Positions 1,661 through 30,962 of a stretch of DNA of 64,000 nt are shown here, in pieces; position 1 is the stretch's first letter, and the number at the start of each line of letters is the position of its first letter. The translations under genes and the position numbers were made by a program. The notes under the pieces are model-generated. The model made no database searches, was not told the origin of the DNA, and worked only from the letters and a program-made list of their open reading frames with translations. Where the stretch lies: assembly GCA_947502635.1 (NCBI GenBank), contig CANNAN010000001.1, forward strand, positions 729,246 to 793,245, in the 5' to 3' direction. Source of the DNA: an uncultured Flavobacteriaceae bacterium (GTDB lineage Bacteria; Bacteroidota; Bacteroidia; Flavobacteriales; Flavobacteriaceae).

Positions 1661-2080
1661 ATGAACAGAATACTTTTTCTTTTAAGTTTAGTAATAGTTT
1701 TAACATCTTGCAGAACTAGTAAAATAAAGGAGATACAGGTTGTTAAGTTAGCTGAAACAACTAAAAGTTGGAATGGCGATAAACTTCCAAATTACCCAGA
1801 AGGAAACCCAAAGATCACGGTTTTAAAAATAACCATTCCACCTAAGACTAAATTGCATAAGCATTACCATCCTGTTATTAACTCGGGTATTTTGTTAAAA
1901 GGAGCATTAACCGTTATAGATAAGGACAATAATGTTTTAAAACTTAAAGCAGGCGACATCATTGTGGAACTAGTAAATAAAGTACACTATGGTATTAATG
2001 AAGGTAATAAACCTGCTGAAATTGTGGTGTTTTATTCAGGAACGGAGGATTTACCTATCACGGTTATAGAAAAAGATTAA
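1661..2080 (+). CDS. Cupin-domain lipoprotein
   Basis: Lipobox VLTSC. Cupin motifs HKHYHP and ELVNKVHYGIN. Confidence 0.8.
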   Translation: MNRILFLLSLVIVLTSCRTSKIKEIQVVKLAETTKSWNGDKLPNYPEGNPKITVLKITIPPKTKLHKHYHPVINSGILLKGALTVIDKDNNVLKLKAGDIIVELVNKVHYGINEGNKPAEIVVFYSGTEDLPITVIEKD

Positions 2081-2222
2081 TATAGTGTTAAATTGAATTA
2101 ATATTGGTTTTGTAAGAAAAACATCTAATTTTGTTAGGTGTCTTATATCAAATATTGAAACGTTAGATATCATAACATTCTCTACAATTTGAGAAATTAA
2201 AATTTTTAAATAAATATTATGT

Positions 2223-4985
2223 ATGAAAATAAGGAATTCTGTAGATGAATTAAAAGATACTAAATTATGGAAATATTTAAGAGGTATTGATGAAAATTAC
2301 TCAGAAATATGTGTAAATTTTGTTGAATTAGTTACTCCTATATTAAAATCAATTCATGATTTTTTTCCTTTTTATACAAGGCACGATGCCCATCATGGAT
2401 ACAGAGTTATCATACGTATTGAACAGATTATTAAAGAAGAATGTATAATAGAAAACGGTGAATTAAGTTTTACTCCACAAGAAATATTGCTTCTAATAGC
2501 TTCCGCTTATGCTCATGATTTGGGAATGGCAGTTTTTCCAGAAGAAGAAACTGAACTTTTAAGTTCATTGAATATTATAAAAGATGATGAATGGAAAACA
2601 AATAAAATACTTCAAAAATATCTTCGAGATGAACACTCAATAAGAGGAGAGAAGTTTATTTCCGAAAATGTCAACAAAATTGGAATTCCCCAGAATTTAG
2701 TAAAACCATTAGGAAATATAATGAGGTCGCATAATTTGCATGTACATGACTTAGAAATTGATCTAGGAAAGAGGTTTGCTGCTGGAGAAAAAGAAATTAA
2801 TTTATCACAATTAGCATGTATATTATGTATAGCTGATGCTTTAGAGTATAGTGATACTAGAGTTATTGATGGTGTGCTAGATAAATTGGCGAAATTAGAA
2901 AATACAGACTCAGTAATTTCTTACAGGGAAAATATGAAGCATATTTGTATAGGTGATAGCGTTGCAATTGGAGATAGAGACGGTAGAGTAATATTTTCAG
3001 GCTCGTTTAATGAACCAGAAGTTTTAGCATTAGCACATAATACTATTGATTTAATCGAAGATTGGGTCACACAATATTGCGAGATAGATAATAAGCAATC
3101 AAATTCTAGACTAAAAATTAAACCTTTAACTTTTTATAGGAATTTGGAAATAGTTGGTTTTGATTTTGAACGATTGGGAATAAAAGTAAAAAAGGAAAAT
3201 ATAATAAGCCTAATTTCATCTAACTCTACATGGTCAAATTCTCATTCAGTAGTTTTTAGAGAATTATTACAAAATGCTATTGAAGCATGTAGGTATAGAG
3301 CATTTCATACACCAACCTCAAAGGCTTATAAATCTGAAATTTCTATTGCTTTTAATAGAGTTGAAAATACTATCATTATAGAAGATAATGGTTGCGGTAT
3401 GAGTAAAAATATAATACTAAATCATTTTCTAAATATTGGCAATAGTAGATCAAGCTTATCAACATATACAAGTAATAACTTCAATTCATTAGCTCGTTTT
3501 GGTATTGGCTTTTGGTCAGTTTTCACTATTTCCTCTAATGTTTTAGTTGAGTCGGCACCTTTCGAATTTCTTAGAAATGAGGAAGATATAGATGGAGTTG
3601 TTCAAGGGTATGGCTTTAATGTTAGTATTGAACAATATAAAGATTATCTTGTTTTTAAACCTATTCAAAGAAAAGTTGGTACAAAAATCACCCTCAAATT
3701 AGAAAATAATATAAGTATTGATGATGTTATAAGTACTTTTAATAAGGAAGTTTTATTTACAATTTTTCCAGTAAGGGTATTTATTGATAATAAGTTTTAT
3801 TTTGAACTTCCAAATAAAATTGAAAAGATAGGTTTTGAAGAACTATTTGAGACAAGACTTATTGCCGCTAAAGCAGAAGAAGTAAAGCTTTTTTCTAGAA
3901 TTTATGAAAAAGATGATGTTACAATTTCTATATGTTTTGCTTATAGAATCAATGAAAATAATCAACTAACTTTTAGGTTGTCTGATAAAGTTAATACTAT
4001 TCAACAATTGCTACCAATAGGTAGCAGTAACCTTCTTGAATATTCAGTTTCTGGATTTAAAGTAAGATTTGGACATATACATACTTGTTTTGAATTGTAT
4101 AGAATTGGTGTTTATAAGGTTAATATCAAGAATAGTGACGGAATTGAATTTCGTTTAGATAGAAATACATTAATTGAATCAGATAGAGTTGAAGAGCTAA
4201 AAAAGAATATTAGTATTTATGCTCATGAAGCTTATATGGAGTTTCTTAAAAAGAATGGCTCTTACAATAAAGAGAATATCTATTTATTGAATAAAGAATC
4301 AAGGCTTCATGGAGGTGGAGTGATGGATAATTATACAAAAGAAATACTTCATATTTCTCAAAAGTACTATCCCGATTTAATATGTTTTAAGCTTATTCAT
4401 ATAACAAAAGAAAAGAATATTGAAAATGCAGACGTTATTTATTTGAATATAAATGAGCTAATTAAAGGAGATTTTGAAATAAGAACTATCCAAAATCCAA
4501 TGATGTCTAACAGAAATCTTAAAGCAGAAGATTTGATGGGTTTTATGTATTCTTTTCTAGCTAAAACAGAAAGTAATAATAATGTCTATTTGATAGAACC
4601 ATGTGTAGAAGGTTCACTTTTATTCGATAATGACACGAATAGTTCAGTGTTTTCAATTAAGATAGGTGCAGGGTTTATTAATGTCATGAGAATGAGTACT
4701 TTAAGACTGGACAAGGAGCATTCATGGATTATTACTGATGTTAGAGGTAGATGGAGTGGTTATATTTATGAAAGAAATATTTTAGGAGAAGAACATTTAG
4801 ATTTTGTATTTCTTGGAAGATATAGATTGATTTTAAATAATAATTCAGAAATATCACAAAAAATAAAGAAACTTAGTAAAGAAAATAGGAAATATGAAAT
4901 ATCTGAAATAGCACATCTGTTATCAGAGGCTTATTCAGGTAATATAAGTGTGAAGTTAAAAGAATTTTTTCCTAATTCGTTTTAA
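2223..4985 (+). CDS. HD-domain (HD-CE-like) fused to HSP90-like GHKL ATPase; putative conflict/defence protein
   Basis: HD module: YTRHDAHHGYRV, AYAHDLGM, H...RSH, CIADALE. GHKL module: FRELLQNAIEA, IEDNGCGM, ARFGIGFWS, GTKITL. Long unassigned C-terminus. Confidence 0.75.
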   Translation: MKIRNSVDELKDTKLWKYLRGIDENYSEICVNFVELVTPILKSIHDFFPFYTRHDAHHGYRVIIRIEQIIKEECIIENGELSFTPQEILLLIASAYAHDLGMAVFPEEETELLSSLNIIKDDEWKTNKILQKYLRDEHSIRGEKFISENVNKIGIPQNLVKPLGNIMRSHNLHVHDLEIDLGKRFAAGEKEINLSQLACILCIADALEYSDTRVIDGVLDKLAKLENTDSVISYRENMKHICIGDSVAIGDRDGRVIFSGSFNEPEVLALAHNTIDLIEDWVTQYCEIDNKQSNSRLKIKPLTFYRNLEIVGFDFERLGIKVKKENIISLISSNSTWSNSHSVVFRELLQNAIEACRYRAFHTPTSKAYKSEISIAFNRVENTIIIEDNGCGMSKNIILNHFLNIGNSRSSLSTYTSNNFNSLARFGIGFWSVFTISSNVLVESAPFEFLRNEEDIDGVVQGYGFNVSIEQYKDYLVFKPIQRKVGTKITLKLENNISIDDVISTFNKEVLFTIFPVRVFIDNKFYFELPNKIEKIGFEELFETRLIAAKAEEVKLFSRIYEKDDVTISICFAYRINENNQLTFRLSDKVNTIQQLLPIGSSNLLEYSVSGFKVRFGHIHTCFELYRIGVYKVNIKNSDGIEFRLDRNTLIESDRVEELKKNISIYAHEAYMEFLKKNGSYNKENIYLLNKESRLHGGGVMDNYTKEILHISQKYYPDLICFKLIHITKEKNIENADVIYLNINELIKGDFEIRTIQNPMMSNRNLKAEDLMGFMYSFLAKTESNNNVYLIEPCVEGSLLFDNDTNSSVFSIKIGAGFINVMRMSTLRLDKEHSWIITDVRGRWSGYIYERNILGEEHLDFVFLGRYRLILNNNSEISQKIKKLSKENRKYEISEIAHLLSEAYSGNISVKLKEFFPNSF

Positions 4986-17732: not shown

Positions 17733-18800
17733 CTATATACTCTCAGTTTCAAAATAATTAACTAATAAAGCGACGACGTAGCTATAGCTTTCCATACCTT
17801 TATTTTGATTATTGGCTTTTAAAAAGCTACCATAGAATAATTTAAATAAGGGCTCCATTGGGTTTTCATGAGCTTCCCAAAACTCACGAACTTCTTTGTA
17901 GTTTTTTAAAATCCCTTTGTTAACGTCTGCAACCATGTCTTCAAATAAACATTCGTCACGTCTGTAAATTTCATTCAAACAAAAGCGCAATCCAAAAGTA
18001 TACCCCGTGTATTTAAAATAAATATCATCATGATTTATGGCTGCCATACACCCAATAAAATTAGCCTCATTTTCGGCAGCATAACCTAATTGATGTGCGA
18101 TTTCATGAGAAGCTGTCGTAGGAATTTTAGAAATAGGAATTAAACTGTTAACCTGAGCTTCGTTAGTAAACGGGTTTAAATAACCACTAAATCCCATATA
18201 AGTTAATGGGTAACTGTATAATGACTTTTTTATACTTTTAGGATGATATTCTAAATGAGGGAATATTTGTTTTAAATTTTCATAACCTATAGGCGTCATT
18301 TTTAGTACGTCACTTTTACTATATGGTAAATCAACTTTAATGGTGTCATTATTAGTGATTTTTAAATGAAGCGCATTCGATTTTTTAATAAGGCTTTCGG
18401 TAACAGAAATTAATTGTTCTGTAGTATAATCATTAGCAATATTTAAACTCTTATGTAATGGCAGTCGGTAATAATTAAACCCCCAAAATAAGTGAAAAGC
18501 CAAATACATAATAGATACTAAAGAAAACATATCAACAAACCATTGTTTTGTGTTTTTTCTTAGTTGTTTTCTGTTTTTATAAAACCATCGAATTATATAA
18601 ATAATTGAAAAAGTATAAATAAAATCTCCAAACGAAAATGGTAATGAACCAAGAGTGTATCTAAAAATTTTCGAAATAAATGGATAAAATCCATTACTGT
18701 AAAATTGTTCAACAAATTCAGGGTGGTTAGATAACCATGAGATTAATAAATACTGTGGAATTAGCGATAATGCTATTACGGTCTTTTTCTTTTTCAGCAT
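17733..18800 (-). CDS. DUF3810 family putative zinc aminopeptidase, membrane anchored
   Basis: WGFNYYR, GYLNPFTNEAQVN, HEIAH, AAENEANF. Confidence 0.85.
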   Translation of the reverse strand: MLKKKKTVIALSLIPQYLLISWLSNHPEFVEQFYSNGFYPFISKIFRYTLGSLPFSFGDFIYTFSIIYIIRWFYKNRKQLRKNTKQWFVDMFSLVSIMYLAFHLFWGFNYYRLPLHKSLNIANDYTTEQLISVTESLIKKSNALHLKITNNDTIKVDLPYSKSDVLKMTPIGYENLKQIFPHLEYHPKSIKKSLYSYPLTYMGFSGYLNPFTNEAQVNSLIPISKIPTTASHEIAHQLGYAAENEANFIGCMAAINHDDIYFKYTGYTFGLRFCLNEIYRRDECLFEDMVADVNKGILKNYKEVREFWEAHENPMEPLFKLFYGSFLKANNQNKGMESYSYVVALLVNYFETESI

Positions 18801-19005: not shown

Positions 19006-19013
19006 TATATTTG
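19006..19013 (+). promoter_or_regulatory. Bacteroidetes -7 promoter box upstream of PID-CTERM gene
   Basis: TATATTTG matches TAnnTTTG, 34 nt before ATG 19048. Confidence 0.55.
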
Positions 19014-19047
19014 AATAGCTATTATCAATCTTTTTAAATTACAAATT

Positions 19048-19401
19048 ATGAAAATTAAGACTAATACTCTGTTTAAAACTATTAGTATGTTTATGATACT
19101 TTTAGCTTTAACATTCTCTACTAATATGAATGCTAGTTCTATTAGTATAAGTACAATCCCAGTAAGTGTGAATTCGGTTCACACCAACCTGATTGCAATT
19201 TCAGGTAAGTGGTGGCAAAAAAAGGATAAAAAGAAAAAAAGATGTCGCAAATGTGGATCACCAAGTTGTAAAGGTAAATGTGGTAAAAAGGGAGGTCATA
19301 CAGATTCTGTTCCATTGGACGGAGGTCTTAGTATTTTATTATTAGGAGGGGCTGCTTTTGGAATTAGAAAATTGCTTGGAAATAAAAATGGAAAGCTTTA
19401 A
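19048..19401 (+). CDS. Small secreted Lys/Cys-rich protein with PID-CTERM-type sorting signal
   Basis: N-terminal signal peptide. C-terminal VPLDGG, then a TM helix, then basic RK residues. Directly upstream of an exosortase. Confidence 0.8.
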   Translation: MKIKTNTLFKTISMFMILLALTFSTNMNASSISISTIPVSVNSVHTNLIAISGKWWQKKDKKKKRCRKCGSPSCKGKCGKKGGHTDSVPLDGGLSILLLGGAAFGIRKLLGNKNGKL

Positions 19402-19984
19402 TTCATTAAAAAATAAAATTCCTTTACCAATAAGGCTTTTCTTAGGAAAAGCCTTATTGCTTTTTATTGCTTGGGAAATTATTTATGGTGTTTTCTTATA
19501 TGATTCACAATTCTTAGATCACCCATTGACTACTCACATTGGAGAATCTTCGGCTCAATTTTTAAATAATTTCACTTCAATGGATGGGTTTGTTGCGAAA
19601 AATGAAGAGTGGAGTTTAACACATGATGGAGAAACATTAGAAGAAAAAGTTTCGGCAATATATCACAATAAGAATAAAGTATTGTATATAGCTAATGTTT
19701 GTAATGGATTATCATTAATGGCCTTATATGTAGGGTTTATTATTTGTATGCCCTCTAAATTTTGGCGTAAAATACTTTATATTATTCTTGGTTTGATAGC
19801 CCTTGACTTTATAAATATTCTTAGATGTGTTGGATTAATCTATCTTCGAGAATATTTTTATATCTACTTTGAATTTGCGCATCATTATTTATTTAAAGCG
19901 ACTGTATATACAGCTACATTTTTAATATGGATGCTCTATTGTCGCAAAATACATTTTAAAAATGAATCTCTACAAATCGGATAA
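19388..19984 (+). CDS. Exosortase/archaeosortase family protein (XrtX-like)
   Basis: Multi-TM protein with the Cys-Arg-His triad: NVCNGL, NILRC, FAHHY. ATG 19388 preferred to TTG 19358. Confidence 0.8.
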   Translation: MESFNSLKNKIPLPIRLFLGKALLLFIAWEIIYGVFLYDSQFLDHPLTTHIGESSAQFLNNFTSMDGFVAKNEEWSLTHDGETLEEKVSAIYHNKNKVLYIANVCNGLSLMALYVGFIICMPSKFWRKILYIILGLIALDFINILRCVGLIYLREYFYIYFEFAHHYLFKATVYTATFLIWMLYCRKIHFKNESLQIG

Positions 19985-20369
19985 GGTTCGTTTTATATTA
20001 GGACTTATATTTATTGTTATTATTTATTCTTGCTACCATTTGTATTTTGTCGAAAACAAAAATACGTTCTTACTATCAAGAAAGATGAACCATATTATTA
20101 GGTTTTTGGCTACAATAGCAGTTTATTTTGTTGGAACATTGCATCTTGGAAAATTAAAAGACACATGGATGTCATCTCTTTGGCATTTCGTTCATATTTC
20201 TGGGTTATGTATTATTACCTTTTTGGGCTTGTTTGTTTGGTTTATATCTGAAATAAACTTTAGTTTAAGAGAGTTCGCTAAAGCTATTCAAGAATTATTA
20301 ATTTCTCCTGTTTTATATGTAGCTATGGGGTTACTCAATAAAAGTTTAAATAAAGATTCTGCTAAGTAA
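19962..20369 (+). CDS. Exosortase-associated membrane protein
   Basis: Four TM segments, overlaps the exosortase stop, ends in ISPVLYVAMGLL. Confidence 0.7.
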   Translation: MNLYKSDKVRFILGLIFIVIIYSCYHLYFVENKNTFLLSRKMNHIIRFLATIAVYFVGTLHLGKLKDTWMSSLWHFVHISGLCIITFLGLFVWFISEINFSLREFAKAIQELLISPVLYVAMGLLNKSLNKDSAK

Positions 20370-20473: not shown

Positions 20474-21934
20474 ATGAGCACAGAAATAAGACAACTTCAA
20501 CCACAACAGCTTTGGACTAAATTTGCAGATTTAAATGCTGTACCAAGAGGATCTAAAAAAGAAGAACGTGTTATTGCGTTTATGAAAGATTTTGGTAAAA
20601 CACTAGGTTTAAATACCATTGAAGATGAAGTTGGAAATGTTATTATAAAAAAGCCAGCAACTTCTGGAATGGAGAGTAGAACGACCATTGTTATGCAATC
20701 TCATTTGGACATGGTGCATCAGAAGAATGGGGATACTAATTTTAATTTTGATACCCAAGGGATTGTAATGTATGTTGAGGGTGATTGGGTACGTGCCAAA
20801 GGAACAACTTTAGGAGCAGATAATGGTTTAGGAGTCGCTACTATAATGGCTATTTTGGAAAGTACAGATATTCCGCATCCTGCTATTGAAGCTTTATTTA
20901 CTATAGATGAAGAAACTGGTATGACAGGAGCTATGGGTTTAAAAGGCGGATTGCTCTCTGGAGGCATCCTTTTAAATTTGGATACAGAAGAAGATAATGA
21001 AATTGGTGTAGGTTGTGCAGGTGGTATTGATGTCACAGCGACAAGAACTTATAACGAAGAAGAAACTCCCGAATTTAAAATAGGATATAAGATTACTGTA
21101 AAAGGATTACAAGGTGGGCATTCGGGGATGCAAATTCATGAAGGTTTAGGGAATGCTAATAAAATAATGAATCGCGTATTATTTGATGGTTTTGAAAATT
21201 ACGGATTGAGAATTTCGGAAATTGATGGCGGGAGTTTACGTAATGCCATTCCTCGCGAAAGCAATGCTATAGTTGCTATTGATGCGGTTCATGAAGATGC
21301 TTTTTTATTAGAAATTGCTTTGATCTCTAATGTTCTTAAAAAGGAATTAAAAACGATGGAACCAGATTTAGAAATTAATATTTCTAAAATAGACACACCA
21401 AAGTATATTATGGACTTAGGGGTTCAGGAAGGATTGACCAGAGCTTTATATGCCGCTTATAATGGTGTTTACAGAATGAGTGCAGATATTCCTGAGTTGG
21501 TGGAAACATCAAATAATATTGCTAGGGTATTGGTTAAGGATGGGCATATTCATATTGGCTGTTTAACGCGTTCTTCTGTTGAAAGTTCTAAGATGGATCT
21601 GGCAAATACATTACGAGCAACTTTTGAATTAACAGGTTGCGAAGTAGAGTTTTCTGGTGATTATCCAGGATGGACACCTAATATGGATTCAGCTATCTTA
21701 AAGGTAATGACTGAATTGTATGAAGATCTGAATGATGAAAAACCACATGTAGCAGCGTGTCATGCTGGGCTAGAATGTGGTATTCTAGGAACAAATTATC
21801 CAGAAATGGATATGATTAGTTTTGGACCTAATATAAAAGGAGCACACTCACCCGATGAGCGAGTTCAAATATCTTCTGTTCAAAAATATTGGAAGTTTGT
21901 TTTGGAGATATTGAAGGGGATACCAGTTAAATAA
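20474..21934 (+). CDS. pepD: Aminoacyl-histidine dipeptidase (M20C)
   Basis: QSHLDMV, TLGADNGLG, DEETGMTGA, NLDTEED, HAGLECG, HSPDERV. TATCTTTG promoter box at 20434-20441. Confidence 0.95.
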   Translation: MSTEIRQLQPQQLWTKFADLNAVPRGSKKEERVIAFMKDFGKTLGLNTIEDEVGNVIIKKPATSGMESRTTIVMQSHLDMVHQKNGDTNFNFDTQGIVMYVEGDWVRAKGTTLGADNGLGVATIMAILESTDIPHPAIEALFTIDEETGMTGAMGLKGGLLSGGILLNLDTEEDNEIGVGCAGGIDVTATRTYNEEETPEFKIGYKITVKGLQGGHSGMQIHEGLGNANKIMNRVLFDGFENYGLRISEIDGGSLRNAIPRESNAIVAIDAVHEDAFLLEIALISNVLKKELKTMEPDLEINISKIDTPKYIMDLGVQEGLTRALYAAYNGVYRMSADIPELVETSNNIARVLVKDGHIHIGCLTRSSVESSKMDLANTLRATFELTGCEVEFSGDYPGWTPNMDSAILKVMTELYEDLNDEKPHVAACHAGLECGILGTNYPEMDMISFGPNIKGAHSPDERVQISSVQKYWKFVLEILKGIPVK

Positions 21935-30401: not shown

Positions 30402-30428
30402 ATTAGATTTAAAACTTTAAGATATTTT

Positions 30429-30459
30429 AAAAGCTTCTCAGAAATGGGAAGCTTTTTTT
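30429..30459 (+). terminator. Intrinsic terminator after rpsT
   Basis: AAAAGCTTCTCA-GAAA-TGGGAAGCTTTTTTT. Confidence 0.8.
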
Positions 30460-30599
30460 ATGAGTTTCTTAGACTATTTTTGAATTAAAAAGAATTATTG
30501 ATTCTATTAAAAATTTAAACAAAGTATTTACGTTTTTAGAAATCAAAGTATAAATTTGCAATTATAACAAGTTAATTATTCAAATAATCCTTTAACCCT

Positions 30600-30962
30600 T
30601 TGGAAAATAAAAAAGCAATTAAATTAATCGATAAAATCCTGGAAGATCTTGATAAAACAGGTATCAATACAGAGACATTAATTGACGATATAAAAGAATT
30701 AAGAACGTATGCTTTAGAAGAGCAAGTTCCTTTAGTCGTAAAGGTTCTTAGGTTTACTTATGAGCACATAGAAGAAAATAACGCATTTCTTATTCCTATT
30801 CTTGATGATGAACCTGCAGATGAAGAGGTGCATATTGAAGAGGATGAAGATGTTTCTCCTGTAGAAAGTCTTAAGTATTTACTTTCTCTTCTTAAAAACC
30901 TTAAAAACAAAGTTAATATTTCAGACTTAAAGGAGTACAGAGACCTTTTAATGGAATATTAA
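30600..30962 (+). CDS. Hypothetical acidic protein
   Basis: 120 aa, TTG start, own promoter box TAAATTTG at 30551-30558 and own terminator. Confidence 0.75.
   Translation: MENKKAIKLIDKILEDLDKTGINTETLIDDIKELRTYALEEQVPLVVKVLRFTYEHIEENNAFLIPILDDEPADEEVHIEEDEDVSPVESLKYLLSLLKNLKNKVNISDLKEYRDLLMEY

Follow-up and report, generated by a model that had tools for sequence, protein, structure and literature searches.

A putative dedicated PID-CTERM/exosortase cassette with its own partner family and a conserved terminator-like hairpin in a Flavobacteriaceae genome

Exosortases are widespread, and we know of no bacterial member for which the attachment target of the substrates has been established. Can a locus of three small genes be a sorting system in its own right, and to which branch of the exosortases would it belong? 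The locus in question occupies positions 19048-20369 of a 64,000-nucleotide stretch (G000:C1:729246-793245, contig CANNAN010000001.1; 'the window' denotes this whole stretch) from an uncultured Flavobacteriaceae bacterium. It encodes a short predicted substrate, an exosortase and a small membrane protein. We read it as a dedicated PID-CTERM/exosortase C-terminal sorting system with an obligate partner and an attenuating terminator, and assign this reading a probability of about 70%. It draws on gene content, family assignments, co-occurrence and the conservation of catalytic residues and of an RNA hairpin. The genome (5.4 Mb, 32% G+C) has Flavivirga species as its closest named relatives, and the cassette proteins are 91% identical to their counterparts in F. 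algicola.

An initial annotation of the locus had described three overlapping genes that encode a protein ending in PLDGG, a transmembrane (TM) helix and RK, a sortase with a Cys/Arg/His triad and a four-TM protein. All of this was borne out. The three open reading frames (ORFs) lie co-directionally on the plus strand and overlap by 14 nucleotides (nt) between the substrate and exosortase genes and by 23 nt between the exosortase and partner genes. The substrate gene (19048-19401) encodes 117 residues, of which residues 1-29 (MKIK...LALTFSTNMNA/SS) were judged by eye to form a Sec-type signal peptide. The predicted mature protein of about 62 residues is strongly basic (isoelectric point 10.0, net charge +10.6) and contains two Trp and four Cys, the latter spaced as CxxC-x4-C-x3-C. 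Its tail consists of PLDGG (residues 89-93, encoded at 19312-19326), which is the presumed cleavage region, followed by LSILLLGGAAFGI and then by RKLLGNKNGKL to the C-terminal end; hydropathy places the tail helix at residues 88-106. That is, the protein carries all three parts of the sorting signal: P-[IL]-D-G-G, a hydrophobic helix and a basic cluster at the extreme C-terminus. The PID_CTERM model NF046080 matched residues 88-111 with 38.3 bits (cut-off 26) and the same gene in a six-frame search of the genome with 40.3 bits. Matches of the substrate to Pfam DUF6520 and DUF4668 fell below threshold and were disregarded.

The second gene (19388-19984, plus strand) encodes an exosortase of 198 residues. 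A TTG at 19358 is also open and would extend the overlap with the substrate gene to 44 nt, while the ATG at 19388 is the more likely start because the N-terminus MESFNSLKNK is conserved in orthologues. The protein passes the superfamily signature TIGR04178 (50.2 bits, cut-off 23), and its predicted catalytic residues C105 (VCNGL, codon at 19700), R146 (NILRC, 19823) and H165 (FAHHY, 19880) do not vary in any of the 30 sequences compared, relatives at 27-36% identity among them. In the archaeosortase ArtA, which belongs to the same superfamily, Cys173, Arg214 and Arg253 are required for activity (PMC9263693). Since the homologous Cys and Arg are needed there, we count them in favour of a sorting enzyme here. 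The Pfam model Exosortase_EpsH gave 19.8 bits, below its cut-off of 25.7, and NCBI labels the orthologues only as 'archaeosortase/exosortase family protein'. An AlphaFold2 (AF2) model reached a mean predicted local distance difference test score (pLDDT) of 82; compared with the PDB it gave no match at E <= 0.001 (best E = 0.34, generic helical bundles or unrelated proteins), and no solved relative was found by sequence.

Assignment to a named subfamily is less straightforward. The initial annotation had proposed a search with hidden Markov models (HMMs); when this was run, the PID_CTERM and superfamily models were passed, but the enzyme missed the cut-offs of both XrtX (NF046081, 119.3 bits versus 170) and XrtF (TIGR04128, 59.8 bits versus 90), and the partner has no curated model. 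The XrtX model also gives genuine XrtF proteins 72-126 bits (own genome plus 125 Flavobacteriaceae genomes), and the XrtF of the same genome scores 117 bits on it, about the same as the window exosortase (118). A sub-threshold XrtX match can therefore not separate XrtF from a third branch. Among 201 Flavobacteriaceae genomes, 125 contain at least one XrtF/X-type match and 12 a second copy, and no protein passes the XrtX cut-off; scores above 170 bits occur in 63 of 401 Bacteroidota genomes, all from other families and classes.

In a maximum-likelihood tree the window exosortase and its orthologues form one clade (support 100/100) on a long stem of 1.5-2.6 substitutions per site. The seed-type XrtX proteins of loci L074/L075 come out as its sister group, inside the XrtX radiation (94/85; root uncertain, stem long). 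XrtF forms a separate clade (100/100). In this phylogeny the window exosortase and its orthologues are a coherent, unnamed branch, probably of the XrtX radiation.

The third gene (19962-20369, plus strand) encodes 135 residues, for which AF2 predicts four long helices (mean pLDDT 85, predicted template modelling score 0.79). Its comparison with NCBIfam and Pfam models gave no match, the AF2 model found nothing in the PDB at E <= 0.001 (best E = 0.9, generic helical bundles or unrelated proteins), and NCBI calls its orthologues 'hypothetical protein'. The protein occurs in exactly those 12 of the 201 Flavobacteriaceae genomes that contain a second exosortase, and its gene invariably comes immediately after that of the exosortase. 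When 1.84 billion representatives were searched with a profile, the family grew to 144 clusters at 50% identity, nearly all of 120-145 residues; no NCBIfam model covers any of them. Four distant members (about 17-29% identical to the window partner) were inspected, and all four lie directly behind an exosortase that scores 110-119 bits on the XrtX and 66-83 bits on the XrtF model; at one of these loci (L086) a PID_CTERM gene adjoins as well. With these four enzymes, found through the partner family, added to the tree, all partner-bearing exosortases fall into one clade (100/99.7) beside the seed-type XrtX. The adjacent partner gene is a better marker of the third branch than a sub-threshold XrtX score, and its genomic distribution supports the view that the four-helix protein is an obligate partner of the exosortase.

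Is this partner a divergent form of those already known? The window partner gave no match at E <= 1 to the XrtX partner model NF046082 (cut-off 75), and only one of 99 members of the wider family matched it (E = 0.0034). BLASTP against XrtF and XrtX partners returned nothing. Profile-profile comparison with hhalign yielded probabilities of 0.6-11% over narrow and wide profiles (0.6-2.6% against NF046082), and we do not claim homology. A short motif before the last helix reads LISP in the window partner and LIQP in the XrtF partner (hhalign probability 11%), and IVSP was also seen. The XrtF and XrtX partner families likewise do not detect each other. In another Bacteroidota family (L076 1989-2462 and loci L078-L084), exosortases that pass the XrtX model with about 200 bits adjoin a partner of 157-171 residues without NF046082 match, and no PID-CTERM gene is adjacent. 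Both observations imply that partners diverge fast. H61, H75, H78, D7, R10 and E111 are invariant among close orthologues of the window partner, but only G58, W69, W74, S115 and P116 hold in the 99-sequence family. Since the His, Asp and Glu residues are not kept family-wide, a catalytic role was rejected, and the protein is probably a subunit or adaptor rather than an enzyme.

A further conserved element is an RNA hairpin inside the exosortase coding region. A terminator scan located it at 19428-19459 on the plus strand (CAATAAGGCTTTTC-TTAG-GAAAAGCCTTATTG), followed by CTTTTTATTG, so that hairpin and T-run together span 19428-19469. The stem comprises 14 bp with five G-C pairs, the loop has 4 nt, and five of the next eight bases are T, which is the stem-loop and U-run pattern of a terminator. 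The hairpin begins 27 nt past the substrate stop codon, encodes exosortase residues 14-24 (PIRLFLGKALL) and folds with -20 kcal/mol (z = -3.1). In an alignment of 15 orthologous loci from different genera, 98.6% of the cells of the stem pair, versus 38-60% when the partner arm is slid. All seven changed cells among the 13 inner pairs are one-sided, to G.U on the sense strand, and the only three cells that do not pair belong to the outermost C-G pair. The 11 hairpin codons have a synonymous diversity of 0.14, compared with 0.45 for the 55 remaining degenerate codons that are fully conserved (permutation p < 1e-5). The genome-rare codons AGG (11% usage) and CTT (15%) are kept in 15/15 loci, GCC (13%) in 14/15. 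An Rfam search with the hairpin found nothing.

Three distant loci of the family without an upstream substrate gene have no comparable hairpin in this place (best 45-nt windows -5 to -10 kcal/mol versus -19.5). Canonical intergenic terminators directly follow the PID-CTERM genes of two other loci, L075 (about 2040-2126, minus strand, -29 kcal/mol) and L086 (about 3400-3455, minus strand, about -37 kcal/mol), which suggests a shared design. In the window the structure lies inside the exosortase reading frame because the genes overlap. Most probably, the hairpin acts as an attenuating terminator on transcripts of the substrate gene, and it may also stabilise the 3' end of a short transcript. If termination occurs there, substrate mRNA would be in excess and only read-through transcripts would encode both membrane proteins.

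The hairpin could instead affect the stability or processing of the RNA, slow down translation of the exosortase or serve a regulator as DNA operator, which would fit its position in a coding region, where efficient termination would block expression of the enzyme too, as well as the interrupted T-run (CTTTTTATTG) and evidence that consists of conservation and not covariation. But the seven changed cells pair only as G.U on the sense RNA and would be mismatched in antisense RNA and in DNA, and this speaks against an operator. Moreover, a hairpin with a T-run has the form of an intrinsic terminator, canonical terminators stand at the equivalent place after the PID-CTERM genes of L075 and L086, loci with no substrate gene upstream lack the hairpin, and stabilisation of the substrate mRNA at its 3' end is compatible with termination. 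We regard a function other than termination as unlikely.

Upstream of the cassette, the initial annotation had pointed to a single TAnnTTTG box. Such a candidate Bacteroidota-type -7 box is present (TATATTTG, 19006-19013, plus strand, 35 nt before the substrate ATG), but in the AT-rich window the motif occurs 112 times versus 114 expected, and at chance frequency the box alone is not evidence. A leader- or operator-like element, GCTATTATCAAT, follows at 19018-19029 on the same strand, about 30 nt before the ATG. Its core, GCTAT[TA]A, recurs between positions -45 and -25 relative to the start codon in 16 of the 23 substrate genes of one tail class (class A, defined below), including copies remote from the cassette, as opposed to 15 of 2989 upstream regions of the own genome (0.5%); the rows include orthologues, which inflates the p-value. 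Upstream regions from L009-L062 show the longer form GCTAT[TA]A(T)(C/T)AAT at about 30 nt before the ATG. Most related substrate genes have a TAnnTTT[G/A] box upstream with the same spacing, and it usually precedes GCTAT[TA]A. This recurrence of box and element supports a promoter at that place and suggests that class-A genes have a promoter or leader in common; GCTAT[TA]A itself could be a shared leader or an operator. A search of the own genome for other members of a GCTATTA regulon turned up nothing relevant, the motif being too short.

Does the exosortase serve a single substrate, as the initial annotation had proposed? The proposed scan of the proteome for further tails yielded one more PID-CTERM protein, a Pro-rich mini-protein of 65 residues (C9:193239-193436, minus strand), and its tail is of another class. 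The genome also encodes two further exosortases. One is an XrtF pair at C19:30423-31371 (TIGR04128 200 bits, enzyme at 30423-30938; partner TIGR04127 143 bits). The other is an XrtK at C18:11329-14635 on the minus strand (132 bits, cut-off 55), which overlaps a downstream gene for a 932-residue multi-TM protein; the XrtK pair sits in a run of small membrane-protein genes. A pairing of one enzyme with one substrate would thus require each tail class to belong to one of two enzymes, the window exosortase and XrtF, and the distribution of tail classes supports this.

Class-A tails share the consensus S[VI]PLDGGLSILLLGAAAFG[VI][RK]KLR, which is kept in orthologues, and terminate variable peptides of 70-145 residues that are often cationic and Cys- or Trp-rich. 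All ten class-A loci sampled come from cassette genomes, where the genes either adjoin the cassette, in some cases as a tandem pair, or lie at other places in the genome. In Tamlana laminarinivorans a second class-A gene follows the partner gene (L012 5154-5408; 84 residues with repeats KRDNKRDNKKDSRRDSRR). Class-B proteins have the form PPPPG[LF]PIDGG..., comprise 57-72 residues and share a conserved signal peptide, MxIQNKRIxASILFVLISFVC (loci L045-L073). Their gene is convergent with ribE in 17 Flavobacteriaceae loci, and they occur in genomes whose only XrtF/X-type exosortase is XrtF, which makes the class-B mini-protein a candidate XrtF substrate. A link to neighbouring GspF-like and pseudopilin genes was dropped, as it is not conserved in other genomes. 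Among six-frame ORFs of the own genome a single tail of each class was found: the class-A HMM gave the window substrate 68.5 bits, the next match 9.1 and the C9 protein 8.1, and the class-B HMM gave the C9 protein 58.1 bits and the window substrate 22.8, with the window's own sequences included in the training sets.

On the level of genomes, PID-CTERM matches occur in 69 of the 125 with an XrtF/X-type enzyme versus none of the 76 without (Fisher p = 2e-19, phylogeny ignored). Cassette genomes contain 2-4 matches, some far from the cassette, and a PID-CTERM substrate adjoins the exosortase in 15 orthologous loci. A match was found in 57 of the 113 XrtF-only genomes, one each with a single exception. 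The simplest reading, inferred from this distribution and plausible, assigns the adjacent class-A substrate to the window exosortase and the class-B peptide to XrtF. The module is compact and self-contained and of the PID-CTERM/XrtX kind, which bears out this part of the initial annotation, with the qualification that relatives hold 2-4 PID-CTERM genes, some of them remote.

One could argue that there is no dedicated pair at all, that the window exosortase and XrtF act redundantly or with overlap on both PID-CTERM proteins and that adjacency reflects co-inheritance only. In favour of this, each tail combines P[IL]DGG with a helix and clustered basic residues, a single NCBIfam model recognises both above its cut-off, the window exosortase and XrtF reach nearly equal scores with the XrtX model (118 and 117 bits), and class-A genes occur far from the cassette in relatives. 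However, the two tail classes are separated cleanly by the class-A and class-B HMMs, class A is confined to cassette genomes while class B extends to genomes with XrtF alone, its gene keeping a fixed place next to ribE, and cassette genomes always have at least two PID-CTERM matches, whereas XrtF-only genomes with a match have one (with that single exception). Redundancy of the two enzymes is therefore improbable in our judgement.

The cassette is flanked by a divergent DUF3810 gene (17733-18800, minus strand) and by a pepD-type dipeptidase gene (20474-21934). In a genome of the same genus (G025; locus L091, G025:C1:4870000-4875600), the orthologues of these two genes are adjacent, with a spacer of 247 bp, and the whole cassette is absent. 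It has therefore been gained or lost as one unit, and it is a presence/absence polymorphism within the genus. Its neighbours differ in other genera. The exact boundaries of the insertion were not found, as the intergenic DNA of G025 is too diverged to align.

Several points weigh against a dedicated system with an obligate partner and a terminator. The exosortase stays below the cut-offs of both curated subfamilies, XrtX and XrtF, and its partner has no significant similarity to the partners of either (hhalign probability 1-11%). The XrtF of the same genome might also recognise a PxDGG tail. For the hairpin, the comparison with loci that lack it comprises three loci only, and its stem shows no double compensatory changes, only conservation and one-sided changes to G.U.

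From the elements described we infer a cleavage site, an acceptor, a role for the partner and a point of termination, which would combine as follows. The 117-residue precursor would be exported by Sec, lose its signal peptide after NMNA and remain in the inner membrane, where the C-terminal helix and the basic tail would retain it. The exosortase, with C105 as predicted nucleophile aided by R146 and H165, would cut at PLDGG and thereby remove helix and tail. By analogy with archaeosortase A, the new C-terminus of the peptide would probably be passed to an acceptor in the membrane or envelope and not to water. The four-helix partner would act as an obligate subunit of the enzyme in handling the substrate or the acceptor. 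Sorting would thus yield a peptide tethered to the surface, some 60 residues long, with four Cys, two Trp and a net charge of about +10. Expression would be governed by a single promoter ahead of the substrate gene together with the hairpin terminator within the first 25 exosortase codons.

Such a cationic, Cys- and Trp-rich peptide might also be an antimicrobial of the bacteriocin type that is released after removal of the tail, the partner being its immunity protein, but although the mature peptides are short, very basic, often Cys/Trp-rich and almost wholly different between genera while the tail is constant, although the order of precursor, terminator hairpin, processing enzyme and small membrane protein resembles that of ribosomal-peptide operons as generally known, and although the cassette is present or absent within one genus, we consider this very doubtful: the partner stays with the exosortase even without an adjacent substrate gene (L087-L089) and co-evolves with the exosortase clade, XrtF and XrtX have positionally equivalent partners though their PID-CTERM peptides are Pro-rich stubs, a partner mutant of the Flavobacterium johnsoniae XrtF system phenocopies the enzyme mutant, and some orthologous cargoes are acidic or Gly/Asn-rich (L015, L047, L051).

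How does the proposed sorting system compare with known ones? The closest counterpart is the set of PID-CTERM protein, XrtX and XrtX-associated protein (NF046080, NF046081 and NF046082; PF28310), which has the same three-part layout and gene order; the seed locus L075/L074 consists of a PID-CTERM mini-protein, an XrtX of 249 bits and an NF046082 partner of 172 bits. Both share the sorting signal, which scores above cut-off in the window substrate, and in both a terminator or terminator-like structure follows the substrate gene, intergenic at the seed XrtX locus L075 and inside the enzyme coding region here, where the genes overlap. They differ in the substrate, a short Pro-rich stub in XrtX systems versus a cationic peptide of about 60 residues in the window, and in the partner, which here gives neither an NF046082 match nor a profile-profile signal. 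XrtX systems are defined by comparative genomics only. Within the collection of papers searched, we found no published experiment on any PID-CTERM protein and no paper that mentions PID-CTERM or XrtX, in agreement with the initial annotation, which had described such pairs as defined bioinformatically.

The XrtF system (TIGR04128/TIGR04127; Fjoh_1448/1449 of F. johnsoniae) likewise has a short exosortase, whose gene overlaps a downstream gene for a multi-TM partner of about 140 residues. Deletion of xrtF and of the partner gene causes the same phenotype in F. johnsoniae, the loss of biofilm, sand colonisation and zorbs, and the substrates of XrtF are still called unknown (PMC10936215). In contrast to the window system, XrtF belongs to a separate clade, its partner is of the TIGR04127 family, to which the window partner does not belong, and the XrtF of the own genome has no adjacent substrate. 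More distant is ArtA/PGF-CTERM of Haloferax volcanii, which shares the superfamily (TIGR04178) and the signal logic of motif, helix and basic tail. ArtA substrates are cleaved and lipid-anchored (PMC9263693, PMC7157517); lipid attachment in the window system would be an analogy only. The archaeal system differs in its many large substrates, such as the S-layer glycoprotein, in its motif and in having neither a dedicated partner nor an adjacent substrate. PEP-CTERM/XrtA (EpsH) of Gram-negative bacteria again shares superfamily and signal architecture, but its enzyme is larger (8 TM helices), serves tens of substrates per genome and is tied to exopolysaccharide loci. The class of system is thus already curated in NCBIfam and Pfam and is not categorically new. 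What sets the cassette apart is its cationic cargo, a partner family of its own, a hairpin of terminator form kept at synonymous sites and a leader motif that class-A genes share.

In a broader and clearly more tentative view, which we consider possible but would not yet favour, Bacteroidota would have a family-wide system, with this cassette as its cargo-bearing form, in which XrtF/XrtX-type exosortases, each with a small membrane subunit of its own, make lipid- or glycan-linked surface peptides from ribosomally synthesised mini-proteins. The cassette would then represent a version with a hypervariable, polycationic, Cys- and Trp-bearing product and a dosage set by the terminator in synonymous sites of the exosortase gene, and the class-B peptide would be the substrate of XrtF.

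Neither the XrtX nor the XrtF model, as curated, covers the third branch, which is coherent and comes with a partner family of its own. The hairpin is a clear case of a transcription-terminator-like RNA structure that is kept inside a coding region by selection on synonymous sites. At about 1.4 kb the cassette is self-contained, with one enzyme, one partner and one short substrate whose detection should be simple, and the same genome offers a natural control of specificity in XrtF and a second, different PID-CTERM peptide. Both features make it convenient for mass-spectrometric mapping of the cleavage site and the acceptor. If the broader view holds, the Pro-rich class-B PID-CTERM mini-protein beside ribE would be the long-sought substrate of XrtF, and the cassette's peptide, exposed on flavobacteria of marine, alga-associated habit, might attach to anionic polysaccharides or affect competitors.

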